This document shows, piece after piece, positions 1,381 to 42,185 of a DNA stretch of 64,000 nt. The translations under genes were made by a program, and so were the position numbers. Source of the stretch: Escherichia coli (lineage in GTDB: Bacteria > Pseudomonadota > Gammaproteobacteria > Enterobacterales > Enterobacteriaceae); NCBI RefSeq assembly GCF_003018235.1, contig NZ_CP027437.1; one strand, given 5' to 3'. Each line of letters starts with the position of its first letter. The first letter of the stretch is position 1. The notes below the pieces were generated by a model. That model saw nothing but the letters and a program-made list of their open reading frames with translations. It was not told where the DNA came from and did no database searches.

Positions 1381-2073
1381 CTAGTGATACCCACGCGCGG
1401 TCATAAAATCCGTAATCGCTTTTTCTGCATCAACCAGTACCTTTTCCAGTGGCTGATTGGCGTCGATATCAACCAGTTGTGCACCACCAAAGGTTAACTG
1501 TGGCGTTATGGCTATCTTTCTTGCCAGCGATTCCCTTTTGTGGTCAGGCTTACGCGCGCAGGCCACGTCTAGATCGACATTGAGTTTGATGACCAGATCA
1601 GGTTTATGGCTCGCCATCCAGTGAAACGCTTTACGTTCCTGGCTTGCCAGCCATGAGACAAAACGACCACCTTCAATGTTAGGTGGGAACACTGTACCAT
1701 CGTAAGCGCCAGGAATTTGGTCCTGAGGATAACGGTCGGTTAGAACAATTAACCCGCGACGACGACAGGCAAGCATATGACGAAAGCGCAGTAAGCGACG
1801 GGCGACAAACGCTGTAATTACCAGCGCCGGAACAGGGCCAGGCAATTTTTTTGCTGTTTTCACCTGATTTCGTTCAATTGTTTTATGTAAGGATTTTCCC
1901 ATCAACGGTAATTTTGTCACTGCACGACCGACATTTCCGGCCTGTTTTCCTAAATGAACTCTTTCGGCTGCACCATATTTTTCGACAACGGTAATGAGAT
2001 GTTCACACACCGTTGACTTGCCTGAACCATCGCTACCAATAACGGCAATTAATGGAGGTGTTATTGACTGCAT
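1381..2073 (-). CDS. yghT: P-loop NTPase, kinase-like (YghT family)
   Basis: 230-aa ORF with Walker [14 protein letters not shown] and a downstream LTDRYP motif resembling the DRY/DRH motif of thymidylate/nucleoside-kinase-fold enzymes; paralogous to the next two genes. Confidence 0.8.
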
Positions 2074-2246: not shown

Positions 2247-2960
2247 GTGAATCAACGTAATATGTCAATAATTAATTCCACGCCAGTGCGTGTTATTGCC
2301 ATTGTAGGATGTGATGGTTCAGGTAAATCGACCCTCACGGCAAGCCTGGTAAATGAACTGGCAGCAAGAATGCCAACAGAACACATTTATCTCGGGCAAT
2401 CGTCCGGGCGAATTGGCGAATGGATTTCACAGCTCCCTGTTATTGGCGCACCTTTTGGGCGTTATTTGCGAAGTAAAGCGGCACATGTGCACGAAAAGCC
2501 CTCAGCACCGCCTGGCAATATTACTGCGCTGGTTATCTATCTGCTTTCCTGCTGGCGGGCGTACAAGTTTCGCAAAATGTTGTGTAAAAGCCAGCAAGGC
2601 TATCTGCTCATCACCGACCGCTACCCGCAGGTTGAAGTGCCGGGTTTTCGCTTTGATGGCCCGCAATTGGCAAAAACCACGGGCGGTAACGGTTGGATAA
2701 AAATGTTAAGGCAGCGCGAGCTGAAGCTGTACCAATGGATGGCGTCTTATTTGCCCGTATTGTTGATTCGTCTTGGCATTGATGAACAAACCGCGTTTGC
2801 GCGTAAACCTGACCACCAACTGGCAGCGTTACAGGAAAAAATCGCCGTTACGCCGCAACTGACATTCAATGGCGCAAAGATCCTTGAACTGGATGGTCGG
2901 CAACCAGCCGATGAAATTATGCAAGCGTCACTACGCGCAATTCACGCCGCGCTTTCCTGA
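2247..2960 (+). CDS. yghS: P-loop NTPase, kinase-like (YghS family)
   Basis: 237-aa ORF with Walker A IAIVGCDGSGKST and ITDRYPQ motif; clear paralog of yghT and yghR; no ABC signature (LSGGQ). Confidence 0.8.
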   Translation: MNQRNMSIINSTPVRVIAIVGCDGSGKSTLTASLVNELAARMPTEHIYLGQSSGRIGEWISQLPVIGAPFGRYLRSKAAHVHEKPSAPPGNITALVIYLLSCWRAYKFRKMLCKSQQGYLLITDRYPQVEVPGFRFDGPQLAKTTGGNGWIKMLRQRELKLYQWMASYLPVLLIRLGIDEQTAFARKPDHQLAALQEKIAVTPQLTFNGAKILELDGRQPADEIMQASLRAIHAALS

Positions 2961-2991: not shown

Positions 2992-3748
2992 ATGGATGCA
3001 CTACAAACACAAACTGTTAAGAGTACAACCGCGCCGCAGCCCAACTACATTCCGGGGCTGATTGCGGTGGTCGGGTGTGATGGCACCGGTAAATCCACGC
3101 TGACCACCGACCTGGTGAAATCGCTGCAACAACACTGGCAAACCGAGCGGCGCTATCTGGGGCTGCTCTCCGGCGAAGACGGCGACAAAATCAAACGATT
3201 GCCGTTGGTTGGCGTCTGGCTGGAACGGCGGCTGGCGGCCAAATCCTCGAAAACCCAAAGCATGAAAACCAAATTTCCAGCGCTATGGGCGGCGGTGATT
3301 ATGTACTGCTTCTCGCTGCGAAGAATGGCGAATCTACGCAAGGTTCAGCGACTGGCGCAAAGTGGCGTTCTGGTGGTCAGCGATCGCTTCCCGCAGGCTG
3401 AAATTTCGGGCTTTTATTATGACGGACCGGGGATCGGCGTCGAACGTGCGACCGGGAAAATCAGCATGTTTCTGGCGCAGCGCGAACGGCGTTTATACCA
3501 ACAAATGGCGCTACCGTCCTGAATTAATCATTCGCCTGGGCATTGATATTGATACTGCCATCTCCCGCAAGCCTGACCATGACTATGCCGAGCTGCAGGA
3601 CAAAATCGGCGTCATGTCGACGATTGGCTATAACGGCACAAAAATTCTTGAGATTGATTCCAGAGCGCCTTACAGCGAGGTGCTGGAACAGGCACAGAAG
3701 GCGGTTTCTCTGGTTGCCATCGTTTCTGACCGCCGAAGTTTAACTTAA
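2992..3748 (+). pseudogene. yghR: P-loop NTPase paralog YghR, apparently frameshifted
   Basis: Paralog homology runs in frame 1 (ORF 2992..3522, Walker A IAVVGCDGTGKST, VSDRFPQ) and then continues in another frame (ORF 3362..3748, RPELIIRLGIDIDTAISRKPDH aligning with yghS LPVLLIRLGIDEQTAFARKPDH). The 757-nt span is not a multiple of 3. Confidence 0.55.
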
Positions 3749-3793: not shown

Positions 3794-5143
3794 TTGGCGG
3801 GTTTTAACATCAAACATTGGTTTGCAGATGGCGCGTTTCGCACCATTATTCGCAATAGCGCCTGGTTAGGCTCCAGTAATGTCGTGAGCGCCTTGCTGGG
3901 TCTGTTGGCGCTCTCGTGTGCCGGTAAAGGGATGACGCCCGCCATGTTTGGCGTACTGGTGATTGTGCAATCGTACGCCAAGTCGATCAGCGATTTTATT
4001 AAGTTTCAGACATGGCAGCTGGTGGTTCAGTACGGAACGCCAGCCTTGACCAACAATAATCCGCAGCAATTTCGCAATGTTGTCTCATTTTCCTTCTCGC
4101 TGGATATCGTCAGCGGCGCGGTGGCGATTGTCGGCGGCATTGCCTTACTGCCATTCCTTTCCCATTCATTAGGTCTGGATGACCAAAGCTTTTGGCTGGC
4201 GGCGCTCTATTGCACGCTCATTCCTTCAATGGCTTCCTCCACGCCGACCGGCATTCTGCGTGCGGTAGATCGCTTTGATTTGATTGCTGTACAGCAGGCG
4301 ACGAAACCTTTTCTGCGCGCAGCGGGGAGCGTCGTAGCCTGGTATTTTGACTTTGGTTTTGCGGGTTTTGTTATTGCCTGGTACGTGTCGAATCTGGTTG
4401 GCGGCACCATGTACTGGTGGTTTGCCGCGCGCGAATTACGCCGCAGAAATATCCATAACACCTTCAAATTGAATCTGTTTGAGTCTGCCCGACACATTAA
4501 AGGCGCGTGGAGTTTTGTCTGGTCAACCAACATTGCCCACTCCATCTGGTCGGCACGTAACTCGTGCAGCACAGTGCTGGTGGGGATCGTGTTAGGACCC
4601 GCTGCCGCCGGGTTATTTAAAATCGCCATGACATTCTTCGACGCCGCCGGAACGCCAGCGGGTTTACTGGGTAAAAGTTTTTACCCAGAGGTGATGCGTT
4701 TAGATCCGCGCACCACCAGACCGTGGTTGTTAGGCGTGAAGTCCGGTTTACTGGCGGGCGGAATCGGTATTCTGGTGGCGCTCGCGGTGTTGATCGTCGG
4801 CAAGCCGCTCATTTCGCTGGTGTTTGGCGTTAAGTATCTCGAAGCGTATGACCTGATTCAGGTGATGCTGGGCGCAATTGTGATTTCGATGCTGGGCTTC
4901 CCACAGGAGTCATTGCTATTGATGGCGGGAAAACAGCGCGCTTTTCTCGTGGCGCAAACCATCGCCTCAATCGGCTACATCGTATTGCTGTTCATGTTCT
5001 GTCATCTGTTTGGCGTGCTGGGGGCTGCATTTGCTTACTTCGCTGGGCAATGTCTGGATGTGGTGTTCTCGCTAATTCCAACCTTAAAGGCATTTTTTCA
5101 GCGCCATTCCTTGCTTTATAACGCAGCCGGAGAGAAATCCTGA
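3794..5143 (+). CDS. yghQ: Polytopic inner-membrane protein, MOP-superfamily flippase-like (YghQ); true start uncertain
   Basis: 449-aa ORF with many hydrophobic segments; I recall YghQ being annotated as a putative polysaccharide/lipid flippase. K-12 protein is shorter by my recollection, so an internal start is possible. Confidence 0.7.
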   Translation: MAGFNIKHWFADGAFRTIIRNSAWLGSSNVVSALLGLLALSCAGKGMTPAMFGVLVIVQSYAKSISDFIKFQTWQLVVQYGTPALTNNNPQQFRNVVSFSFSLDIVSGAVAIVGGIALLPFLSHSLGLDDQSFWLAALYCTLIPSMASSTPTGILRAVDRFDLIAVQQATKPFLRAAGSVVAWYFDFGFAGFVIAWYVSNLVGGTMYWWFAARELRRRNIHNTFKLNLFESARHIKGAWSFVWSTNIAHSIWSARNSCSTVLVGIVLGPAAAGLFKIAMTFFDAAGTPAGLLGKSFYPEVMRLDPRTTRPWLLGVKSGLLAGGIGILVALAVLIVGKPLISLVFGVKYLEAYDLIQVMLGAIVISMLGFPQESLLLMAGKQRAFLVAQTIASIGYIVLLFMFCHLFGVLGAAFAYFAGQCLDVVFSLIPTLKAFFQRHSLLYNAAGEKS

Positions 5144-5967
5144 TGATGAGAAAATATTTCCCGCTTGAGGCTAGCGAGCGTCTATTTGTTGCGATTGAAG
5201 AAGATGATGTCGTTGATGCACAGGTCAGTTTGCCGCCGACTATCGCACTAAGTTGTACCACCGAAATCATCCATGATAATTACGCGTTATGCCTGAAATT
5301 CTGGCTGGATGGTGTTAATCGTCAGGAGCTACTGCGTTTAATCCGCAAACAGGCGAAAGGCGATGAGCTGACGACAGACGAGCGCAAAAAGTATAAATAC
5401 ATGCGAGCGCGCTACAAGCATCTGCGCTTTGCGCAACGGCTGTATTTAAAGAAGCATCAGGCCGGATTTTTATTCGGCAAAACGACCGTTTTTTTGGGGC
5501 GTTTTCAGGACGGCTTTCGTAACGGTAAGAAAAATATTGTGTCGTATTACGGCAACCTGTTACGGGTTTATTTAAGCTCTCCGGTCTGGTCGTTGGTGAA
5601 CTATTCATTACGCCATAGCCAGTTAGAAAGCGTAAGCGGTTTTATTGCCTATCGGCAAAAGCAAATGCATACCCTGAAAGAGATAATTGCCAAACCGCGA
5701 CTAACTGGCAGGGAATTTCATGATGTGCGAAAAATCATCAGCCAGCAGGTTTCTTATTACGACACCCTAAGATCGCTTGATCCTGAAAATAAAGAGGCGT
5801 TACAGATTTCCCGCTTCCTCGCCGCCATTAATGGCCTGATGGGGGATAAACACGACGACATGGTGGCGGATGATATGGAAAACCGCCAGTCGTATGATGC
5901 ACCGGTGGCGCTGGATAGCGATATTCGCCAGCGCTTAGAGCTGCTGATTTCGCGTTTTCCGCTATAA
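5143..5967 (+). CDS. Hypothetical basic protein, 274 aa, function unknown
   Basis: ORF start overlaps the yghQ stop (TGATG), indicating translational coupling; no motif I recognise. Confidence 0.55.
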   Translation: MMRKYFPLEASERLFVAIEEDDVVDAQVSLPPTIALSCTTEIIHDNYALCLKFWLDGVNRQELLRLIRKQAKGDELTTDERKKYKYMRARYKHLRFAQRLYLKKHQAGFLFGKTTVFLGRFQDGFRNGKKNIVSYYGNLLRVYLSSPVWSLVNYSLRHSQLESVSGFIAYRQKQMHTLKEIIAKPRLTGREFHDVRKIISQQVSYYDTLRSLDPENKEALQISRFLAAINGLMGDKHDDMVADDMENRQSYDAPVALDSDIRQRLELLISRFPL

Positions 5968-5975
5968 CCGGAGCA

Positions 5976-6539
5976 ATGATGTCATCTCGTTTGATTATTG
6001 CGCTGATTATCATGCTCTTAGCCCCGGGTGTGCAGGCACACAATTTCGTCACTGGCAAAACGGTTACCCCTGTTTATATCCAGGAAGGCGGCGAGCTGCT
6101 TCTGAATAGCGACGACGAAATTCACTACCAAAAGTGGAACAGCACACAGCTGGCGGGAAAAGTTCGCATTATTCAGTATATCGCCGGGCGTAAGTCGGCG
6201 AAGAAAAAGAACTCACTGTTAATTAAAGCGGTTGAAGCGGCAAACTTTCCGCAGGATCGTTTTCAGCCCACCACCATTGTGAACACCGATGATGCCATTT
6301 TTGGTACTGGCTATTTTGTCGTTGGCAAAATCGAAAAAAATAAACGCCGCTATCCGTGGGCGCAATTCGTTATTGACGGCAATGGACAGGGACGCGTTGC
6401 CTGGCGGTTGCCGGAGCAGAGTTCAACCATTCTGGTGCTGAATAAAGCCGGGCAAATTCAGTGGGCAAAGGACGGCAGCCTGACGCCGGAAGAGGTAGAA
6501 CATGTCATTGCGCTGGCGCAGAAACTGATCAATGAATAA
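5976..6539 (+). CDS. Secreted/periplasmic YtfJ-family protein
   Basis: 187-aa ORF with N-terminal signal peptide (MMSSRLIIALIIMLLAPGVQA then HNF). Blocks TTIVNTDDAI and WAKDGSLTPEEV match my memory of E. coli YtfJ. Confidence 0.6.
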   Translation: MMSSRLIIALIIMLLAPGVQAHNFVTGKTVTPVYIQEGGELLLNSDDEIHYQKWNSTQLAGKVRIIQYIAGRKSAKKKNSLLIKAVEAANFPQDRFQPTTIVNTDDAIFGTGYFVVGKIEKNKRRYPWAQFVIDGNGQGRVAWRLPEQSSTILVLNKAGQIQWAKDGSLTPEEVEHVIALAQKLINE

Positions 6540-6569
6540 AAAATTCAAAGGATTGAGGGCGTTAGTGAG

Positions 6570-7640
6570 ATGAAGCTGGTTGAACACTACATCATGCGTG
6601 GTACGCGCCGTCTGGTGCTGATTATCGTCGGTTTTCTGATCTTTATTTTCGCCAGCTACTCCGCACAGCGTTATCTGACCGAAGCGGCAAATGGGACATT
6701 AGCTCTTGATGTTGTGCTGGATATTGTTTTCTACAAGGTGCTGATTGCACTGGAGATGTTGTTACCTGTTGGACTGTATGTGTCAGTTGGCGTGACGCTA
6801 GGGCAGATGTATACCGACTCGGAAATTACCGCTATTTCTGCGGCGGGGGGCAGTCCGGGACGCTTGTACAAAGCCGTTCTTTATCTGGCGATACCGCTAA
6901 GTATTTTTGTCACCCTTCTGTCGATGTATGGTCGTCCGTGGGCTTATGCGCAGATTTATCAACTGGAGCAACAGTCACAGTCGGAGCTGGATGTTCGCCA
7001 GTTGCGGGCAAAGAAATTTAACACTAACGATAACGGACGAATGATCCTTTCGCAGACGGTTGATCAGGATAATAATCGCCTGACTGACGCGCTGATTTAT
7101 ACTTCTACTGCCAATCGAACCCGCATTTTCCGCGCCCGTTCGGTTGATGTGGTTGACCCATCACCTGAGAAACCGACCGTTATGTTGCATAACGGGACCG
7201 CCTATCTTCTCGATCATCAGGGGCGTGACGACAACGAACAGATCTACCGTAATCTGCAATTACATCTGAATCCGCTGGATCAAAGCCCTAACGTCAAACG
7301 CAAAGCAAAATCGGTCACGGAGCTGGCGCGCTCCGCCTTTCCTGCCGATCATGCCGAACTGCAATGGCGACAAAGCCGTGGCCTGACAGCATTGTTGATG
7401 GCGCTGCTGGCCATTTCATTAAGTCGGGTAAAACCGCGGCAAGGGCGATTTTCAACGTTATTGCCACTGACGTTGCTGTTTATTGCCATTTTTTATGGCG
7501 GCGACGTCTGCCGTACGCTGGTGGCTAACGGCGCGATTCCCCTCATTCCTGGTTTGTGGTTAGTACCCGGACTCATGCTAATGGGCCTGCTGATGCTGGT
7601 CGCACGCGACTTCTCATTGCTGCAGAAATTTTCCCGATGA
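6570..7640 (+). CDS. LptF/LptG-family (YjgP/YjgQ) permease, first of a pair
   Basis: 356-aa ORF with N-terminal TM helices, an LGQMYTDSEITAISAAG block resembling LptF LGKLYTESEIT, a central soluble domain and C-terminal TM helices. Confidence 0.7.
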   Translation: MKLVEHYIMRGTRRLVLIIVGFLIFIFASYSAQRYLTEAANGTLALDVVLDIVFYKVLIALEMLLPVGLYVSVGVTLGQMYTDSEITAISAAGGSPGRLYKAVLYLAIPLSIFVTLLSMYGRPWAYAQIYQLEQQSQSELDVRQLRAKKFNTNDNGRMILSQTVDQDNNRLTDALIYTSTANRTRIFRARSVDVVDPSPEKPTVMLHNGTAYLLDHQGRDDNEQIYRNLQLHLNPLDQSPNVKRKAKSVTELARSAFPADHAELQWRQSRGLTALLMALLAISLSRVKPRQGRFSTLLPLTLLFIAIFYGGDVCRTLVANGAIPLIPGLWLVPGLMLMGLLMLVARDFSLLQKFSR

Positions 7641-8716
7641 ATGTTTTCAGTCGCTATTTAATCCGTCATCTCTTTCTCGGTTTTGCCGCCGCCGCAGGGC
7701 TATTGCTGCCGCTTTTTACCACCTTCAACCTGATTAACGAACTGGATGATGTCAGCCCGGGCGGTTATCGCTGGACTCAGGCGGTGCTGGTGGTGCTGAT
7801 GACCTTACCGCGTACACTGGTCGAACTTTCGCCGTTTATCGCATTATTGGGAGGGATTGTTGGCCTGGGGCAGTTATCGAAAAACAGTGAGCTTACCGCC
7901 ATTCGCAGCACGGGGTTTTCTATCTTCCGTATTGCACTAGTGGCGCTGGTTGCCGGGATATTGTGGACTGTTTCGTTAGGCGCGATAGATGAGTGGGTGG
8001 CGTCGCCATTGCAGCAACAGGCGCTGCAAATCAAATCGACTGCCACCGCGTTGGGGGAGGACGATGACATTACCGGCAATATGCTTTGGGCCAGGCGCGG
8101 TAATGAATTTGTGACGGTGAAATCGCTGAACGAGCAGGGCCAGCCTGTGGGCGTGGAGATATTTCATTATCGCGACGATCTCTCGCTCGAATCCTACATT
8201 TTTGCACGCAGTGCCTCCATTGAAGACGACAAAACATGGATCCTGCATGGTGTGAATCATAAAAAATGGTTGAATGGCAAGGAAACGCTGGAAACATCAG
8301 ATAATCTTGCCTGGCAATCGGCCTTCACCAGTATGAATCTTGAAGAGTTATCGATGCCGGGAAATACTTTTTCTGTCCGTCAACTTAATCATTACATCCA
8401 TTATTTGCAGGAAACTGGGCAACCCAGCAGCGAATACCGCCTTGCACTGTGGGAAAAACTGGGACAACCCATCCTGACCCTGGCGATGATTTTGCTGGCT
8501 GTGCCGTTTACCTTTAGTGCCCCGCGTTCGCCTGGGATGGGTAGCCGTCTCGCTGTAGGCGTCATCGTGGGCTTACTTACCTGGATCAGCTATCAAATCA
8601 TGGTCAATCTGGGATTGCTATTTGCGTTGAGCGCACCTGTTACCGCGCTCGGTTTACCGGTAGCGTTTGTGCTGGTGGCGTTGAGCCTGGTGTATTGGTA
8701 TGACAGACAACATTAA
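7637..8716 (+). CDS. LptF/LptG-family (YjgP/YjgQ) permease, second of a pair
   Basis: Start MNVFSRYLIRH overlaps the upstream stop (ATGA at 7637-7640); SELTAIRSTGFS block resembles LptG SELVVMQASGF; same TM - periplasmic domain - TM layout. Confidence 0.7.
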   Translation: MNVFSRYLIRHLFLGFAAAAGLLLPLFTTFNLINELDDVSPGGYRWTQAVLVVLMTLPRTLVELSPFIALLGGIVGLGQLSKNSELTAIRSTGFSIFRIALVALVAGILWTVSLGAIDEWVASPLQQQALQIKSTATALGEDDDITGNMLWARRGNEFVTVKSLNEQGQPVGVEIFHYRDDLSLESYIFARSASIEDDKTWILHGVNHKKWLNGKETLETSDNLAWQSAFTSMNLEELSMPGNTFSVRQLNHYIHYLQETGQPSSEYRLALWEKLGQPILTLAMILLAVPFTFSAPRSPGMGSRLAVGVIVGLLTWISYQIMVNLGLLFALSAPVTALGLPVAFVLVALSLVYWYDRQH

Positions 8717-8717
8717 A

Positions 8718-8744
8718 CCCGCCGTGGCGCAACACCACAGCGGG
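8718..8744. terminator. Hairpin in the 35-bp gap between the convergent permease and Spt-like genes; possible bidirectional terminator
   Basis: cccgccgtgg (8718-8727) and ccacagcggg (8735-8744) form an imperfect inverted repeat with one mismatch. Confidence 0.4.
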
Positions 8745-8750
8745 CTCACA

Positions 8751-9923
8751 TTACTGCTTCAGAGTAGCGAACGCTTGAATGATGGCATCAATTTGCTCAC
8801 GACTGTGGGCAGCGTTTACGCTACAGCGCAGCAGCGTGATGCCTGCAGGCGCGGCAGGTGGCAGGATAAGATTCACATAAACGCCCAGCGAAATAAGCTC
8901 GCGCCAGATGCGTAAACCTTCCTCTTTCGAACCGATTATTACTGGCACTACCGGGCTAATATGTGAACTTAACTCATAATCCAGTTTTTGCAGACCGTCA
9001 TACAGATGGTTGGCATTATCCATCAGCTTTTGCCGCAACTCTGGTTGTGAGACAATGGTTCTTAACGACGAGCGCACGGTCGCAATGCAGGACGGAGAAG
9101 GAGAGGCGGTAAAAATATACGGGCGGCTGCCGTAGCGCAACACTTCCATCGCTTCCGAACCGACAGCAAAACCGCCAATCGAGGCCAGGCTTTTACTGAA
9201 GGTACCAACGATAATATCCACATCATCTTCAACGCCAACGGCTTCAGCCAGTCCGCGCCCCGTTGCGCCTAACACGCCAAACGAATGCGCTTCATCGACA
9301 ATCAAATAACCACCGAGACGACGTTTGATATCAACAATTTCCGCCAGCGGCGCAACGTCACCGAGCATACTGTAGATGCCTTCAACGATGATAATCGCCT
9401 CTTTTGCCCGTTCACCGAGGCGAACCATGCGCCGTTCCAGATCTTTAGCATCGTTATGGCGGAAACGAATAATTTCCGCGCCACCGAGAGAACAGGCGTC
9501 ATAAATACTGGCGTGGCTGTCGGCATCCAGTAACACCACGGCGTTATGGTCGGCAAGTGCGCTGATGACGCCTAAATTAGCGGTATAACCGGTTGAAAAA
9601 ACGATAGCGGTAGGGCGATTAAAAAACTCGGCGATCTCTTTCTCTAACGCCAGATGCGGCGCATAACTGCCGTTTGCCATACGAGAACCGGTGGTGCCGG
9701 TGCCTTGGGCCGCTAACGCTGCCTGACCTTCGGCGATGGCATCATGATTAAAGGTTAAACCGAGATAATTATTGGTCCCGGCCAGAATCACTTTTTTATT
9801 GCCGATCCGACCTTCGGTGGCGGAATACACTTCATCAATACAGGTGCCAAACGGTGTTAACCCGTTGTCACTAAATTGCAGTCGCTCGCCAGCAAGGCGC
9901 GCATATTTATCGTATAGCCCCAT
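8751..9923 (-). CDS. PLP-dependent alpha-oxoamine synthase, serine-palmitoyltransferase-like (Spt/Kbl/BioF family)
   Basis: 390-aa ORF with the PLP-lysine motif GTFSKSLASIGGF and DEAHSFG, as in serine palmitoyltransferase and 8-amino-7-oxononanoate synthase. Confidence 0.8.
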   Translation of the reverse strand: MGLYDKYARLAGERLQFSDNGLTPFGTCIDEVYSATEGRIGNKKVILAGTNNYLGLTFNHDAIAEGQAALAAQGTGTTGSRMANGSYAPHLALEKEIAEFFNRPTAIVFSTGYTANLGVISALADHNAVVLLDADSHASIYDACSLGGAEIIRFRHNDAKDLERRMVRLGERAKEAIIIVEGIYSMLGDVAPLAEIVDIKRRLGGYLIVDEAHSFGVLGATGRGLAEAVGVEDDVDIIVGTFSKSLASIGGFAVGSEAMEVLRYGSRPYIFTASPSPSCIATVRSSLRTIVSQPELRQKLMDNANHLYDGLQKLDYELSSHISPVVPVIIGSKEEGLRIWRELISLGVYVNLILPPAAPAGITLLRCSVNAAHSREQIDAIIQAFATLKQ

Positions 9924-10171
9924 TATTTATTCTCCAGCCATGGAAGTAGTGTTTCCATTAATTGCGCAGGGGTTTTGACATCCAGCAGAATATTAATAGG
10001 AATGGAAATATCGAATCTGTCTTCCAGCATCATTAAGAGATCCATCACTTTGATCGACTCCAGGCCAAGATCGTTGACGAGATCGCTGTCGGGCTTAATT
10101 TCCACACCGTTTTCGACCAAATCCTGTAAACAGGAAAGGATGTAATCCATTACTATTTCACGATTTACCAT
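9923..10171 (-). CDS. Acyl carrier protein
   Basis: 82-aa acidic ORF with phosphopantetheine-attachment motif DLGLESIKVMDL; its stop overlaps the Spt start (TAATG). Confidence 0.75.
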   Translation of the reverse strand: MVNREIVMDYILSCLQDLVENGVEIKPDSDLVNDLGLESIKVMDLLMMLEDRFDISIPINILLDVKTPAQLMETLLPWLENK

Positions 10172-10202
10172 AGAAACGTTAACACACCTTTAAACAAGAC
10201 AA

Positions 10203-11117
10203 TCAAAATAGCCCGTTGCGTAATGCGTGTTCCAGGCTAATCCCGGGAAACCAATTAATATCTTCAGAAATACGGTTATTACTTGCCGACCAGTCGGCAT
10301 GAGTTAATTCACGGATTTTCGAACGAGTCAGCATCGGTTCTTTACCCGCCAGACGGCTCAACGCGGTACTGATATCCGCAAGGCAGGTGAGTAGCGGCAG
10401 AGGAATACCGACCATCCGCACGGAACCGCAACGGGCGTCGGCGGCAAGCTGTCTTACGCGTTGCCAGTCATAGCCTCCGGCGACGCCATCGCATAATTCA
10501 TAGGTTTGCGTCTGTACAGTTTCGGCGCTTAACCACTGACCCACTGCTTGCGCAAAATCGGTGACGTGAAGAAAAGAGAGCTGTGTCTCTGGCGTGCCAA
10601 GTCGTGGCAGCAGGCCGCGCAGCATCCAGTCAAACAGCGGTTTTAACTCTTTATCGCCGGGACCATACACGGCTGTCGGGCGAAAAACGCCCAGCGTAAT
10701 TTCATCAGCCATTGCAGTCAGCCGTTGTTCGGCGACGTGTTTGGAATTTGCGTACCAGGAGAGTTCGGGATGGCGCGCCGCCAGCGAAGAGATAAACAGA
10801 AAACGTTGGCAAAAGCCGCTCTCTTTTGCCGCTTGCATCAGGCGCAGGCTGCCGTCAACGTTACAGCGGGTAAAAATCTCTTCTTTGTGTCCGCGCACTT
10901 GTCCGGCGCAATGGACCACCGCGCTGGCTCCGGCAACCAGTTCGCTAAGCGAATGTGTATCTTCCAGCGAACCGCGCACCCAGATGAGATTATCATTGAC
11001 GTGAGCGCGGGCAGTACGCGTCAATGCGCGAACGTGAAAGCCGCGGGCGAGCAGGTTATCGATAATATATTTACCGATAAACCCGGTAGCGCCCGTCACC
11101 GCGACAGTTTGATTCAT
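10203..11117 (-). CDS. NAD(P)-dependent epimerase/dehydratase-family (extended SDR) reductase, CerR-like
   Basis: 304-aa ORF with N-terminal Rossmann motif VTGATGFIG and catalytic YxxxK (YANSK). Confidence 0.75.
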   Translation of the reverse strand: MNQTVAVTGATGFIGKYIIDNLLARGFHVRALTRTARAHVNDNLIWVRGSLEDTHSLSELVAGASAVVHCAGQVRGHKEEIFTRCNVDGSLRLMQAAKESGFCQRFLFISSLAARHPELSWYANSKHVAEQRLTAMADEITLGVFRPTAVYGPGDKELKPLFDWMLRGLLPRLGTPETQLSFLHVTDFAQAVGQWLSAETVQTQTYELCDGVAGGYDWQRVRQLAADARCGSVRMVGIPLPLLTCLADISTALSRLAGKEPMLTRSKIRELTHADWSASNNRISEDINWFPGISLEHALRNGLF

Positions 11118-12823
11118 GCCAGGGATTCCTGCACATGAAGGCTTGCAGCATAACGTTTTTTCGCTTCCGCACGGGCAGGCTTGCCGGAGGACGTTCGGGG
11201 AATACTGTGGGGCGGCAACAGATCGATAGCCGCTGTTACGCCAAATTCGCTTTGGATCCGTGCTACCAGTGCGTGGATAAGCTGCCCACGACGTTCTTCG
11301 TCGCTGATCCTACACTGGATCTGCAGAATGATTTTTTCCTGGGCGGTAACAAAAGCAATCGCATCGCCAGAATGAATTTCCGGTTCCTGTTCCGCAATAT
11401 ATTCAATATCCTGCGGCCAGATATTACGGCCACGAATAATAATCAGATCTTTAATGCGTCCGGTGACATACAGATAACCGTCCAGCAGATAACCGAGGTC
11501 GCCGGTGTCTAACCAGCCCGTCGCGGCAATCTCGTCTTGTGAAATCTGGTCGCCAAAGTAACCGCTCATCAGGCTAGGGCCGGAGATGCAAATATGGCCT
11601 ACCACACGTTCCGCGACAGGTATACCTGCTTCATTGCGGATTTCAATGCCATGTTCCGGCAACGCTTTACCGCAGTTGACGAAAGTCGATACGGCGCGTG
11701 TTTCAGCATCCGGCGCGACGGCTTTGCCCTGATATTCGAGGATGTCGCGATCCACTTCGTTAACCACAACCCCGGAAGCTTCATCAGAGAAGCTGACAGC
11801 CAGCGCATTTTCTGCCAGTCCGTAGCACGGCATGAAAGTTTTATCGTCAAAGTTGACCTGACGGAAACATTCAGCGAATTGATGGAGTTGTTCTGCGGAG
11901 ATGGGTTCTGCACCAATACCAGCGACGCGCCAGCAGGAAAGATCCAGTTCAGCGAGATCTTTTTCATTCACGCGGCGCTGGCACAATTCATAGCCAAACG
12001 GCGGCGCAACGGAAACGGTGCCGCGATTTTTACTGATCAATTTAAGCCATTGCAGAGGACGCATGGCAAAATCCTGAGTGCGCAAATAATCTACTGAAAG
12101 CTGCGTGGCGACGGGGGGCAGGAGAAAGCCGACCAGTCCCATATCATGGTAGAAAGGCAGCCAGGAGACGCAGCGGTCGCCAGGGCGTAATTTAATGCCA
12201 TCGTGGCTTATAGCACGTAGATTAGCCATCACTTCGCGATGGGTGATAATGACGCCACGGGGAAAACGGGTGCTGCCGGAGGTGTACTGGAGGTAGGCGA
12301 TATCGTTCGGAACTGGACGCTGGAGCGCAACATCGGCTTCCGGTAATGCCTTAAACCAGGCGTGGCTTAAAACATGTAATTCGGGGTTGTTATGCGTAGC
12401 GGCATTGACCAGTGGCAACCACTCATCACCAGTGATAATGGCTGCGGGCTGGCAACTTGCCAGTAAACCCTGCAGTTTGGCGCTCCAGGAATCCCGCTGA
12501 CCGACGCCCATTGGAATCGCCAACGGGACGGCGACTAAGCCGGCATACTGGCAGGAAAAAAAAGCCTCTACGAACCCGCTACTGGTTTCGGCAATCAGCG
12601 CCACGCGATCGCCTTTTTTCAGGTTCAGCGATAACAACCGCTTCGCACCAGCTTCGGCACGCGCTTTTAACGTCTGATATTCCAGTTGATCTTCAAGTTG
12701 GCAACGTCTGTCATAAAAATTCATTCCGGCGCTACTCAGAGCGGCGTAGTCCAAAGCATCAACCAGCGTTGGAAAATCGGCATAGCGCATAGGTAGGGAA
12801 TGCGTAAAGATTTTATTAGACAT
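11114..12823 (-). CDS. Fatty-acyl-AMP ligase / acyl-ACP synthetase (AMP-binding superfamily)
   Basis: Adenylation motifs YTSGSTRFPRGV and TGDLGY...GRIKDLIIIRGRNI; stop overlaps the reductase start (ATGA). Start taken at the ATG for MSNKIF; the ORF track extends to 12850 on a TTG. Confidence 0.8.
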   Translation of the reverse strand: MSNKIFTHSLPMRYADFPTLVDALDYAALSSAGMNFYDRRCQLEDQLEYQTLKARAEAGAKRLLSLNLKKGDRVALIAETSSGFVEAFFSCQYAGLVAVPLAIPMGVGQRDSWSAKLQGLLASCQPAAIITGDEWLPLVNAATHNNPELHVLSHAWFKALPEADVALQRPVPNDIAYLQYTSGSTRFPRGVIITHREVMANLRAISHDGIKLRPGDRCVSWLPFYHDMGLVGFLLPPVATQLSVDYLRTQDFAMRPLQWLKLISKNRGTVSVAPPFGYELCQRRVNEKDLAELDLSCWRVAGIGAEPISAEQLHQFAECFRQVNFDDKTFMPCYGLAENALAVSFSDEASGVVVNEVDRDILEYQGKAVAPDAETRAVSTFVNCGKALPEHGIEIRNEAGIPVAERVVGHICISGPSLMSGYFGDQISQDEIAATGWLDTGDLGYLLDGYLYVTGRIKDLIIIRGRNIWPQDIEYIAEQEPEIHSGDAIAFVTAQEKIILQIQCRISDEERRGQLIHALVARIQSEFGVTAAIDLLPPHSIPRTSSGKPARAEAKKRYAASLHVQESLA

Positions 12824-24267: not shown

Positions 24268-27200
24268 ATGAATAAGAAATTTAAATATAAGAAATCGCTT
24301 TTAGCGGCTATTTTGAGCGCAACCCTGTTAGCCGGTTGTGATGGCGGTGGTTCCGGATCTTCCTCCGATACGCCGCCTGTAGATTCTGGAACAGGGTCTT
24401 TGCCGGAAGTGAAACCTGATCCAACACCAAACCCGGAGCCGACGCCTGAGCCAACGCCGGACCCAGAACCTACGCCGGAACCGACACCTGATCCTGAGCC
24501 AACACCAGAACCGGAGCCAGAACCTGTTCCTACGAAAACGGGTTATCTGACCCTGGGCGGAAGCCAGCGGATAACTGGTGCTACTTGTAATGGTGAATCC
24601 AGCGATGGCTTTACCTTTACGCCAGGCGACAAAGTCACCTGTGTGGCAGGGAACAACACGACAATTGCTACCTTCGACACCCAGTCAGAAGCTGCGCGTA
24701 GCCTGCGTGCGGTTGAAAAAGTGTCGTTTAGTCTTGAGGATGCGCAAGAACTGGCGGCTTCCGATGACAAGAAAAGCAATGCGGTTTCGCTGGTAACGTC
24801 CAGTAACAGCTGTCCGGCGAATACAGAACAGGTTTGCCTGTCGTTCTCCTCTGTGATCGAGAGTAAACGTTTCGACTCACTGTATAAGCAAATCGATCTG
24901 GCACCGGAAGAGTTCAAAAAGCTGGTCAATGAAGAGGTGGAAAACAATGCTGCGACCGATAAAGCGCCATCCACTCATACCTCACCGGTTGTGCCTGTCA
25001 CCACGCCGGGAACAAAACCGGATCTGAACGCTTCCTTCGTGTCGGCTAACGCGGAACAGTTTTATCAGTATCAACCTTCGGAAATCATTCTCTCCGAAGG
25101 CCGACTGGTCGATAGCCAGGGATATGGTGTTGCTGGCGTCAACTACTACACCAATTCAGGCCGTGGCGTGACAGGGGAAAATGGTGAATTTTCCTTTAGC
25201 TGGGGCGAAACCATCTCCTTTGGTATCGATACCTTTGAACTGGGTTCAGTGCGCGGCAATAAGTCGACCATTGCGCTGACTGAACTGGGTGATGAAGTTC
25301 GCGGGGCGAATATTGATCAGCTTATTCATCGCTATTCGACGACCGGGCAAAATAATACCCGTGTTGTTCCGGACGATGTACGCAAGGTCTTTGCCGAATA
25401 TCCCAACGTGATCAACGAGATTATCAATCTCTCGTTATCCAACGGTGCGACGCTGGATGAAGGTGAGCAAGTTGTTAATCTGCCAAACGAATTTATTGAG
25501 CAGTTTAAGACGGGTCAAGCCAAAGAGATCGATACCGCGATTTGTGCGAAAACCGACGGTTGTAACGAGGCTCGCTGGTTCTCGCTGACGACGCGCAATG
25601 TTAATGACGGCCAGATTCAGGGCGTTATCAACAAGCTGTGGGGCGTGGATACGAACTACAAATCTGTCAGCAAGTTCCATGTATTCCATGACTCTACCAA
25701 CTTCTATGGCAGCACGGGTAATGCGCGCGGTCAGGCGGTGGTGAATATCTCCAACGCGGCCTTCCCGATTCTGATGGCGCGTAATGATAAAAACTACTGG
25801 CTGGCGTTTGGCGAAAAACGCGCCTGGGATAAAAACGAGCTGGCGTACATTACGGAAGCGCCTTCTCTTGTTGAGCCGGAAAACGTTACGCGCGATACCG
25901 CCACCTTCAACCTGCCGTTTATCTCGTTGGGGCAAGTCGGCGATGGCAAGCTGATGGTTATCGGTAACCCGCACTACAACAGCATTTTGCGTTGTCCGAA
26001 CGGTTACAGTTGGAACGGAGGCGTTAATAAAGACGGGCAGTGTACGCTCAGCGGTGATTCAGATGACATGAAGAACTTCATGGAGAACGTGCTGCGCTAT
26101 CTGTCAAATGATCGCTGGTTGCCGGATGCAAAATCCAATATGACCGTAGGCACCAACCTGGATACTGTCTATTTCAAACGTCATGGTCAGGTTACAGGAA
26201 ACAGCGCTGAGTTCGGCTTCCATCCGGATTTTGCGGGTATCTCCGTTGAGCATTTAAGTAGCTATGGCGATCTCGACCCGCAGGAAATGCCGCTGCTGAT
26301 CCTCAACGGCTTTGAGTATGTGACTCAGGTGGGGGGCGATCCTTATGCAATCCCGCTGCGTGCAGATACCAGCAAACCGAAGCTGACTCAGCAGGATGTG
26401 ACCGATCTGATCGCCTATCTGAACAAAGGTGGATCGGTGCTGATCATGGAAAACGTGATGAGCAATCTTAAGGAAGAGAGCGCGTCTGGTTTTGTGCGTC
26501 TGTTGGATGCTGCAGGTCTGTCAATGGCACTGAACAAGTCGGTGGTGAATAACGATCCTCAAGGGTATCCGAACCGCGTTCGTCAGCAGCGCGCAACGGG
26601 CATTTGGGTCTATGAACGTTATCCTGCCGTAGACGGTGCGCTGCCGTACACCATCGATAGTAAGACAGGGGAAGTTAAGTGGAAATATCAGGTAGAAAAC
26701 AAACCTGATGACAAACCGAAGCTGGAAGTTGCCAGCTGGCTGGAAGATGTAGATGGCAAACAGGAAACGCGTTATGCCTTTATTGATGAGGCCGATCATA
26801 AAACAGAGGATTCTCTGAAGGCTGCGAAGGAGAAAATTTTCGCGGCGTTCCCGGGGCTGAAAGAGTGTACTAATCAGGCATATCACTACGAGGTCAACTG
26901 TCTGGAATATCGTCCTGGCACGGGGGTTCCGGTTACTGGTGGCATGTATGTTCCACAGTATACGCAACTAAGCCTTAACGCCGACACGGCAAAAGCGATG
27001 GTGCAGGCTGCGGATTTAGGCACCAACATTCAGCGTCTGTATCAGCATGAGCTCTACTTCCGGACCAATGGTCGCAAAGGTGAGCGTCTGAGCAGCGTCG
27101 ATCTGGAACGTCTGTACCAGAACATGTCGGTCTGGCTGTGGAACGATACGAGCTATCGTTATGAAGAAGGCAAAAATGACGAGCTGGGCTTTAAAACGTT

Positions 27201-28831: not shown

Positions 28832-28962
28832 CCGGATAAGGCGCTCGCGCCGCATCCGGCATGAAATAAGGCGCATCGGGTCAACACATATGCCCGATGC
28901 GCCAGCTTATCGGGCCTGGAGGAAAGCCGTATGGCATACACCTGCAGGCCCGCATCCGGCAA
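28832..28962. repeat. Cluster of REP (repetitive extragenic palindromic) elements
   Basis: Canonical REP-type palindromes (ccggataaggcgctcgcgccgcatccgg, gcgcatcggg...cccgatgcgc, gcccgcatccggcaag) between sslE and pppA. Confidence 0.8.
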
Positions 28963-41808: not shown

Positions 41809-42185
41809 TGTCTGATTTTCTTATTATGACCGTTTGGCACCTTCGATGGCTTGTTTGTTCGCAAAGTCCTGGCTTGCACGCTCTGGTGAAAGGTGCCATG
41901 ATTGCGCGAATTTTCTCCTCTCTGTACGGAGTTTGCCCGATGCACGCCACCTCCTTACATTCTCTCGCTTATCGCCGTTTCGCGCGAAACTCTTCTCTTT
42001 TCATGCTACTGCTCATGCGGTGAAGTTAACGCACGCTCACTGCAGGACAACAGTAAAATCAGAGCGTTTCTGCTTTTACTGATGTCTGGCGGTCGGAGCT
42101 GGTGACCAGTTTGACCCATATCTCGTGGGGCAGGGTTTTTCACCTTGTCCGGTATTCTTACTTCCCCGAAACGGGTTTTGCGCTT

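Follow-up and report, generated by a model that had tools for sequence, protein, structure and literature searches.

A 2-bp deletion in yghR points to an inherited frameshift pseudogene in a small, rare Escherichia coli lineage

The yghR gene of Escherichia coli K-12 (b2984) is annotated as 'uncharacterized ATP-binding protein YghR', a protein of 252 aa, and forms a kinase-like triad with yghS and yghT. Insertion mutants of yghR, yghS, yghT and the neighbouring yghQ are viable (PMC9278758), and the literature yielded no functional or biochemical study of any member of the triad. Disrupted copies of yghR are on record. In the unrelated O103:H2 strain CEC12044 (NZ_AP038983.1, L003:1001-1758), an independent 1-bp loss at gene position 613, within an A4 run, has led PGAP to label the gene 'frameshifted'; as this lesion comes from one assembly and lies at a homopolymer site, it could be an error. 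Strain TUM1880 keeps only the first 99 bp of yghR. Here, we describe a yghR lesion present in a stretch of E. coli DNA of 64,000 nt (contig NZ_CP027437.1), hereafter the window. Like the CEC12044 copy, the window copy combines a small single indel, a premature stop and intact neighbours, as is usual for a pseudogene flagged by PGAP. The two differ in that the O103:H2 lesion is a 1-bp homopolymer loss seen in one assembly, whereas the window has lost 2 bp in a non-repetitive context and shares this loss with several assemblies.

The window carries the genes pitB, yghT (minus strand), yghS (plus), yghR (plus) and yghQ-like (plus) in the order and with the spacing of RefSeq-annotated genomes, and this synteny confirms the gene names at the locus. 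The yghT gene (1381..2073, minus strand) is divergently oriented and encodes an intact paralog of 230 aa, while yghS (2247..2960, plus strand), also intact and encoding 237 aa, shares the strand of yghR and ends 31 nt before it. Synteny and alignment delimit the whole yghR pseudogene at 2992..3748 on the plus strand, a span of 757 nt where the intact form has 759 nt and 252 codons. The intact yghQ-like gene, of the polysaccharide-biosynthesis/flippase family (3794..5143, plus strand), starts 45 nt past the native yghR stop codon. Collinearity of the window with NZ_AP022261 extends over 40.7 kb, and the yghR DNA of the window is 97-99% identical to the copies in 4,611 complete E. coli genomes. 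Thus, by synteny and identity the window copy is the orthologous locus, and it does not contain a single intact 252-codon ORF. It shares locus and synteny with K-12 yghR, as well as ∼98% amino-acid identity over both fragments and the P-loop, DRFPQ and RKPDH motifs; what sets it apart is the 2-bp deletion in codon 174, the stop after 176 codons and a private S95F change. Further along the window, at 40746-40851, yghD, which closes the type II secretion gsp cluster, is followed almost directly by tRNA-Phe; at this site NZ_AP022261 carries an inserted kps/neu capsule island of about 19 kb.

Alignment of the window yghR to intact copies from three complete E. coli genomes showed that exactly two bases (AA) are absent at the junction 3511..3512 (plus strand), where the reference reads ATGGCGCAATACCGT and the window ATGGCGC--TACCGT. 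The deleted bases are the AA of codon 174 (Gln, CAA), their placement is unambiguous, and GCG CAA TAC of the reference has become GCG C/TAC in the window, the slash marking the junction. The reference context, GGCGCAATACCG, shows that a lone AA was lost, from neither a homopolymer nor a repeat tract. The 5′ fragment of the gene (2992..3522, plus strand) runs from the ATG at 2992 through 173 native codons and, past Ala173, reads Leu-Pro-Ser and then TGA (3520-3522), giving a product of 176 residues out of 252, of which 173 are native (69%). The 3′ fragment (3512..3748, plus strand) lies in the next frame and comprises native codons 175-252 (YRPELIIRLGIDIDTAISRKPDH...SLT) followed by TAA (3746-3748); it has no usable start codon. 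A tblastn search with the reference YghR placed residues 1-173 at 2992-3510 with 98.3% protein identity and residues 168-252 at 3491-3745, in a different frame, with 92.9%, the latter value being depressed by out-of-frame overlap. The initial annotation had read an ORF at 2992-3522 ending in TGA with its continuation in the ORF 3362-3748, a span that is not a multiple of three and a frame switch at about 3505-3515. All these coordinates hold: the span length is 1 mod 3 and the aligned junction falls within the estimated interval. The paralogy of yghR with yghS and yghT, on which that reading was built, is borne out by the identity of YghR to YghS (41%) and YghT (34%).

Three motifs are common to YghR, YghS and YghT: a P-loop of the form G-x-DG-x-GKST, DR(F/Y)PQ, and (A/S)RKPDH, the RKPDH of which is invariant. 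Family models gave subthreshold scores: intact YghR reaches 30.9 bits against TIGR00041, below the dTMP kinase family cut-off of 83.25, and 25.8 bits against PF02223, for which the threshold is 27, with YghS and YghT scoring lower. A single-sequence phmmer search against PDB yielded nothing but a P-loop match to Aquarius helicase, which is spurious. With a four-sequence paralog profile, the best solved relatives were thymidylate kinases (E about 1e-3), and the alignment paired the YghR segment 'kPeliirlgidldtaiarkP' with the strand-plus-LID segment of TMK. An AF2 model of YghR of moderate quality (mean pLDDT 62, pTM 0.55) contained strands at residues 24-27, 51-54, 127-130, 179-184 and 218-223. 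In a Foldseek search of PDB with this model, the 9 best matches were all thymidylate kinases, as were nearly all of the first 50; the lowest E was 2.7e-5, TM was 0.5-0.6 and identity 12-19%. On this moderate model, YghR is predicted to adopt a TMK-like P-loop kinase fold. It has in common with Tmk (TIGR00041/PF02223) the P-loop NMP-kinase fold with five parallel strands, the DR(Y/F) motif after beta3 and a segment in which PDL and a hydrophobic strand precede a basic LID. It departs from Tmk in its extra helical insertions (residues about 56-123) and in a LID-like RKPDH instead of the arginine-rich TMK LID. E. coli possesses a separate, essential tmk. RefSeq gives yghS and yghT the product name 'dTMP kinase', with a TIGR00041 score of only about 24-25 bits, also below the Pfam threshold; this name probably over-annotates a distinct TMK-like family.

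Since the frameshift falls after residue 173, the parts encoded by the 3′ fragment, that is, beta4, the LID-like RKPDH segment, beta5 and the C-terminal helix, are lost. The 176-residue product retains the Walker A motif (GCDGTGKST) in the P-loop and the DRFPQ motif, and would keep three of the five predicted core strands. We infer from the moderate model and the weak family matches that such a fragment, lacking beta4, the RKPDH segment, beta5 and the C-terminal helix, would neither fold nor catalyse and is very probably without function.

The lesion is shared by other isolates. In all, 17 contigs encode exactly this 176-aa product, namely 16 Logan assemblies of public runs and one NCBI contig of 5,012,557 bp; each Logan contig is assembled from a single public run and is the closest stand-in for read-level support. 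At the DNA level we read four of roughly 17-37 related contigs, located via an identical allele of the neighbouring YghQ: SRR11357309 (Logan), GCA_025590685.1, GCA_026700625.1 and GCA_012128275.1. The deletion junction was present in 4/4 of these loci and the wild-type junction (GCGCAATACC) in 0/4. Over 6,350 bp they differ from the window, in the order listed, by 1, 2, 0 and 2 SNPs, located at window positions 1891, 5941 and 6302, and 6774 and 6867. None of these SNPs falls in yghR. The deletion is thus common to at least four genotypes and older than the divergence of these relatives. The NCBI records of the relatives have no protein called at the yghR locus, as expected of an annotated pseudogene. 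The sampled assemblies are close relatives, and so prove the inheritance of the allele and not its spread. The initial annotation had left the choice between a real pseudogene and a sequencing or assembly indel. The identical deletion in four independently made assemblies of close relatives, together with the product on 17 contigs, argues for the former, and the identity of the junction in independent assemblies with differing SNPs elsewhere contradicts the latter. An intact single ORF in other assemblies, which that annotation had named as a refutation, does exist in other E. coli lineages (4,611 genomes), but every sampled member of this lineage is frameshifted.

Of 5,426 complete E. coli genomes, 4,611 contain a full-length match to yghR; among the rows inspected, nearly all matches measured 759 bp, with 774 bp in three and 758 bp in one. 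Set against thousands of intact orthologues, the deletion is a defined lesion and no chance pattern. A 70-base query spanning the junction had no match of at least 95% identity in the complete E. coli genomes, where the best rows were all gapped 72-base alignments. Scans for the exact junction gave 0 matches in GTDB species-representative genomes and 0 in JGI metagenome contigs, because the lineage is not in those sets. In a collection of 15 billion proteins, a 'repaired' 252-aa form of this YghR allele was absent, with no intact sister allele found, and the YghT allele of the window was absent as well. The best matches to the window among the 5,426 complete RefSeq E. coli genomes are 98.6-98.9% identical over 20-23 kb. 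The proteins encoded next to yghR carry the label Escherichia coli. The window therefore represents a rare E. coli lineage that is missing from the complete-genome set. The public record of this lineage consists of a few dozen draft assemblies and one chromosome-sized contig of 5.01 Mb.

The dN/dS of yghR is 0.06-0.07 among intact alleles and 0.08-0.10 against the window allele (deleted codon masked), and these values place the gene under purifying selection across the species. Five substitutions separate the window copy from the nearest intact allele. Four are synonymous; the fifth, S95F, is non-synonymous and sits where the paralogs vary and the AF2 model is of low confidence. With one lesion and one amino-acid change only, the sequence bears no sign of prolonged relaxed selection. 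The presence of one disabling lesion and negligible extra change indicates that the pseudogene is young, and its loss is a single-lineage event and not a general decay of the gene. Across E. coli, yghT, yghS and yghR are retained together or lost together: 4,614 of the 5,426 complete genomes have full-length yghT-yghS and 4,611 have full-length yghR, and roughly 680-800 genomes match neither query. The suggestion that redundancy among the paralogs had set a decay in motion thus fared unevenly, in that yghS and yghT are indeed intact, but yghR is under purifying selection elsewhere and the triad is kept or lost jointly. Functional redundancy among yghR, yghS and yghT is plausible as an assumption.

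Comparison of the window with NZ_AP022261 revealed 13 indel events over about 57 kb, among which the yghR indel is the sole frame-breaking one within a gene. All others are intergenic or, within sslE and the acyl-AMP ligase gene, add up to multiples of three, and 49 of the 50 reference CDSs mapped to the window are intact end to end. Thus, the record is not prone to errors, nor is the genome in general decay. Several of the remaining differences can be located precisely. The acyl-AMP ligase gene carries a 12-bp deletion at 11150 that keeps the frame, and sslE has, at 24442-24653, 12 bp inserted into a Pro/Glu/Thr-rich repeat and a further net 3 bp, with the frame again kept. A 16-bp insertion at 28882 lies inside a GC-rich hairpin just after sslE. 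At 41940-42011, a small annotated ORF upstream of speC (25 aa in the reference) has four small insertions totalling 6 bp and 87.5% protein identity, and is the most divergent stretch in the right-hand part of the window.

Taken together, these observations suggest, with a probability that we put at roughly 90%, that the window yghR is a genuine, inherited frameshift pseudogene, vertically transmitted in one small, rare E. coli lineage. The likely course of events would be a spontaneous 2-bp deletion, of the AA of codon 174, that arose once in the ancestor of this lineage; translation from the normal ATG would then leave the frame after Ala173 and halt at the TGA at 3520-3522. What has happened is an isolated, young gene loss and not genome-wide decay, with the paralogs and the other mapped genes intact. 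The data show directly the lesion, that it is inherited and that other lineages lack it; the loss of function and any influence on the next gene downstream are inferred.

Downstream of yghR, the window contains at 3794-12823 an intact gene cluster that is absent from the usual K-12 picture. Its first part comprises the yghQ-like flippase-family gene, a hypothetical gene, a YtfJ-family gene and LptF and LptG paralogues, and the rest consists of spt (serine palmitoyltransferase), an acyl carrier protein, an NAD-dependent epimerase/dehydratase and a fatty acyl-AMP ligase. This composition resembles a unit for the synthesis and export of sphingolipid-like lipids.

Could the loss have been selected instead of neutral, either because inactivation of yghR is advantageous in the niche of the lineage or through polarity on the adjacent yghQ/LptFG-like/spt lipid cluster? 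We regard this as unlikely, although it is the alternative that fares best. The lesion has become fixed among the four genotypes sampled from this lineage, but drift or hitch-hiking would be equally expected to fix an allele in a clonal lineage. Purifying selection on yghR elsewhere implies that its loss is not obviously free; yet no yghR phenotype is described beyond the viability of insertion mutants (PMC9278758). Loss does recur, as the whole yghRST block is absent in about 800 of 5,426 genomes and the O103:H2 frameshift is independent, but among 39 full-length genomes sampled across the spread only one frameshift was encountered. As for polarity, yghS, yghR and yghQ lie on one strand with gaps of 31 and 45 nt and no promoter-like site between them, and the premature yghR stop leaves 271 nt untranslated before yghQ. 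Against a strong Rho-dependent effect, the newly untranslated 271 nt contain no marked C-rich, G-poor tract, and a promoter and terminator scan together with the C/G composition of this stretch gave nothing above background. A polar effect on the downstream yghQ would therefore be speculation. A more specific version, which we consider highly doubtful, is that YghR, YghS and YghT could be kinases acting not on nucleotides but on an intermediate of the adjacent lipid/glycolipid cluster, meaning the yghQ flippase-like gene, the LptF/G paralogues, serine palmitoyltransferase, ACP and acyl-AMP ligase, and that yghR loss would be an envelope adaptation. If this were true, one modification step would have been silenced in the lineage, or polarity would have dampened the cluster downstream.

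A sequencing or assembly error, according to which the true genome has an intact yghR and the gap belongs to one record, would fit some of the same data. An isolated single frameshift in a conserved gene is the usual mark of such errors, and the deletion is absent from complete RefSeq E. coli genomes, as is the junction from GTDB species representatives and JGI metagenome contigs. Nevertheless, an error in one record does not explain why four independent assemblies with different SNPs carry the same junction and why contigs of different runs share the 176-aa product. The loss of 2 bases in a non-repetitive context is also unlike a homopolymer-length error, and no further coding frameshift exists anywhere in the window. 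We consider an artefact extremely improbable and retain the reading of yghR as an inherited pseudogene.

Equally improbable is that a functional whole is still made from the frameshifted gene, by programmed +1 ribosomal frameshifting in the 9-nt overlap or from two polypeptides that reassemble. A +1 shift between the junction and the UGA (GCG CUA CCG UCC UGA) would restore the frame with the loss of one residue, and a stop so close behind the lesion makes a shift-prone hungry-stop context formally possible. However, programmed frameshifts are conserved, whereas this one is a derived state of one small lineage set against thousands of in-frame orthologues, and neither a slippery re-pairing codon nor an upstream Shine-Dalgarno-like stimulator is present near 3500-3520, with no SD-like motif found within 3340-3596. 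For a separate C-terminal polypeptide, the first in-frame start past the lesion is the ATG at 3614, which would yield 44 residues beginning beyond beta4 and RKPDH; the overlapping ORF from the GTG at 3362 would first add 50 out-of-frame residues and has no ribosome-binding site. Useful translation of the 3′ part of yghR would thus not be expected. A prfB-type programmed +1 frameshift was rejected with orthologues in frame and an unfavourable context, and split-gene expression is ruled out by the sequence context and the in-frame state of the orthologues. A phase-variable (contingency) locus is ruled out by the lack of a simple-sequence repeat tract at the lesion, and Shigella-style decay or poor assembly by the 49 of 50 mapped genes that are intact and the absence of a second coding frameshift.

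The window yghR, as a frameshift pseudogene, has direct consequences for annotation: the locus should be recorded as a yghR pseudogene (frameshifted) and not as two hypothetical ORFs, and there is no need to suspect an error. The locus is an ordinary lineage-specific frameshift pseudogene, involving no new mechanism, and it opens no long-standing question. The 2-bp deletion could act as a simple clonal marker of this rare lineage. For the family, it adds one more datum that the kinase-like yghRST triad is dispensable and occasionally lost, either singly, as in the window and in the O103:H2 strain, or as a block, as in about 15% of complete E. coli genomes.
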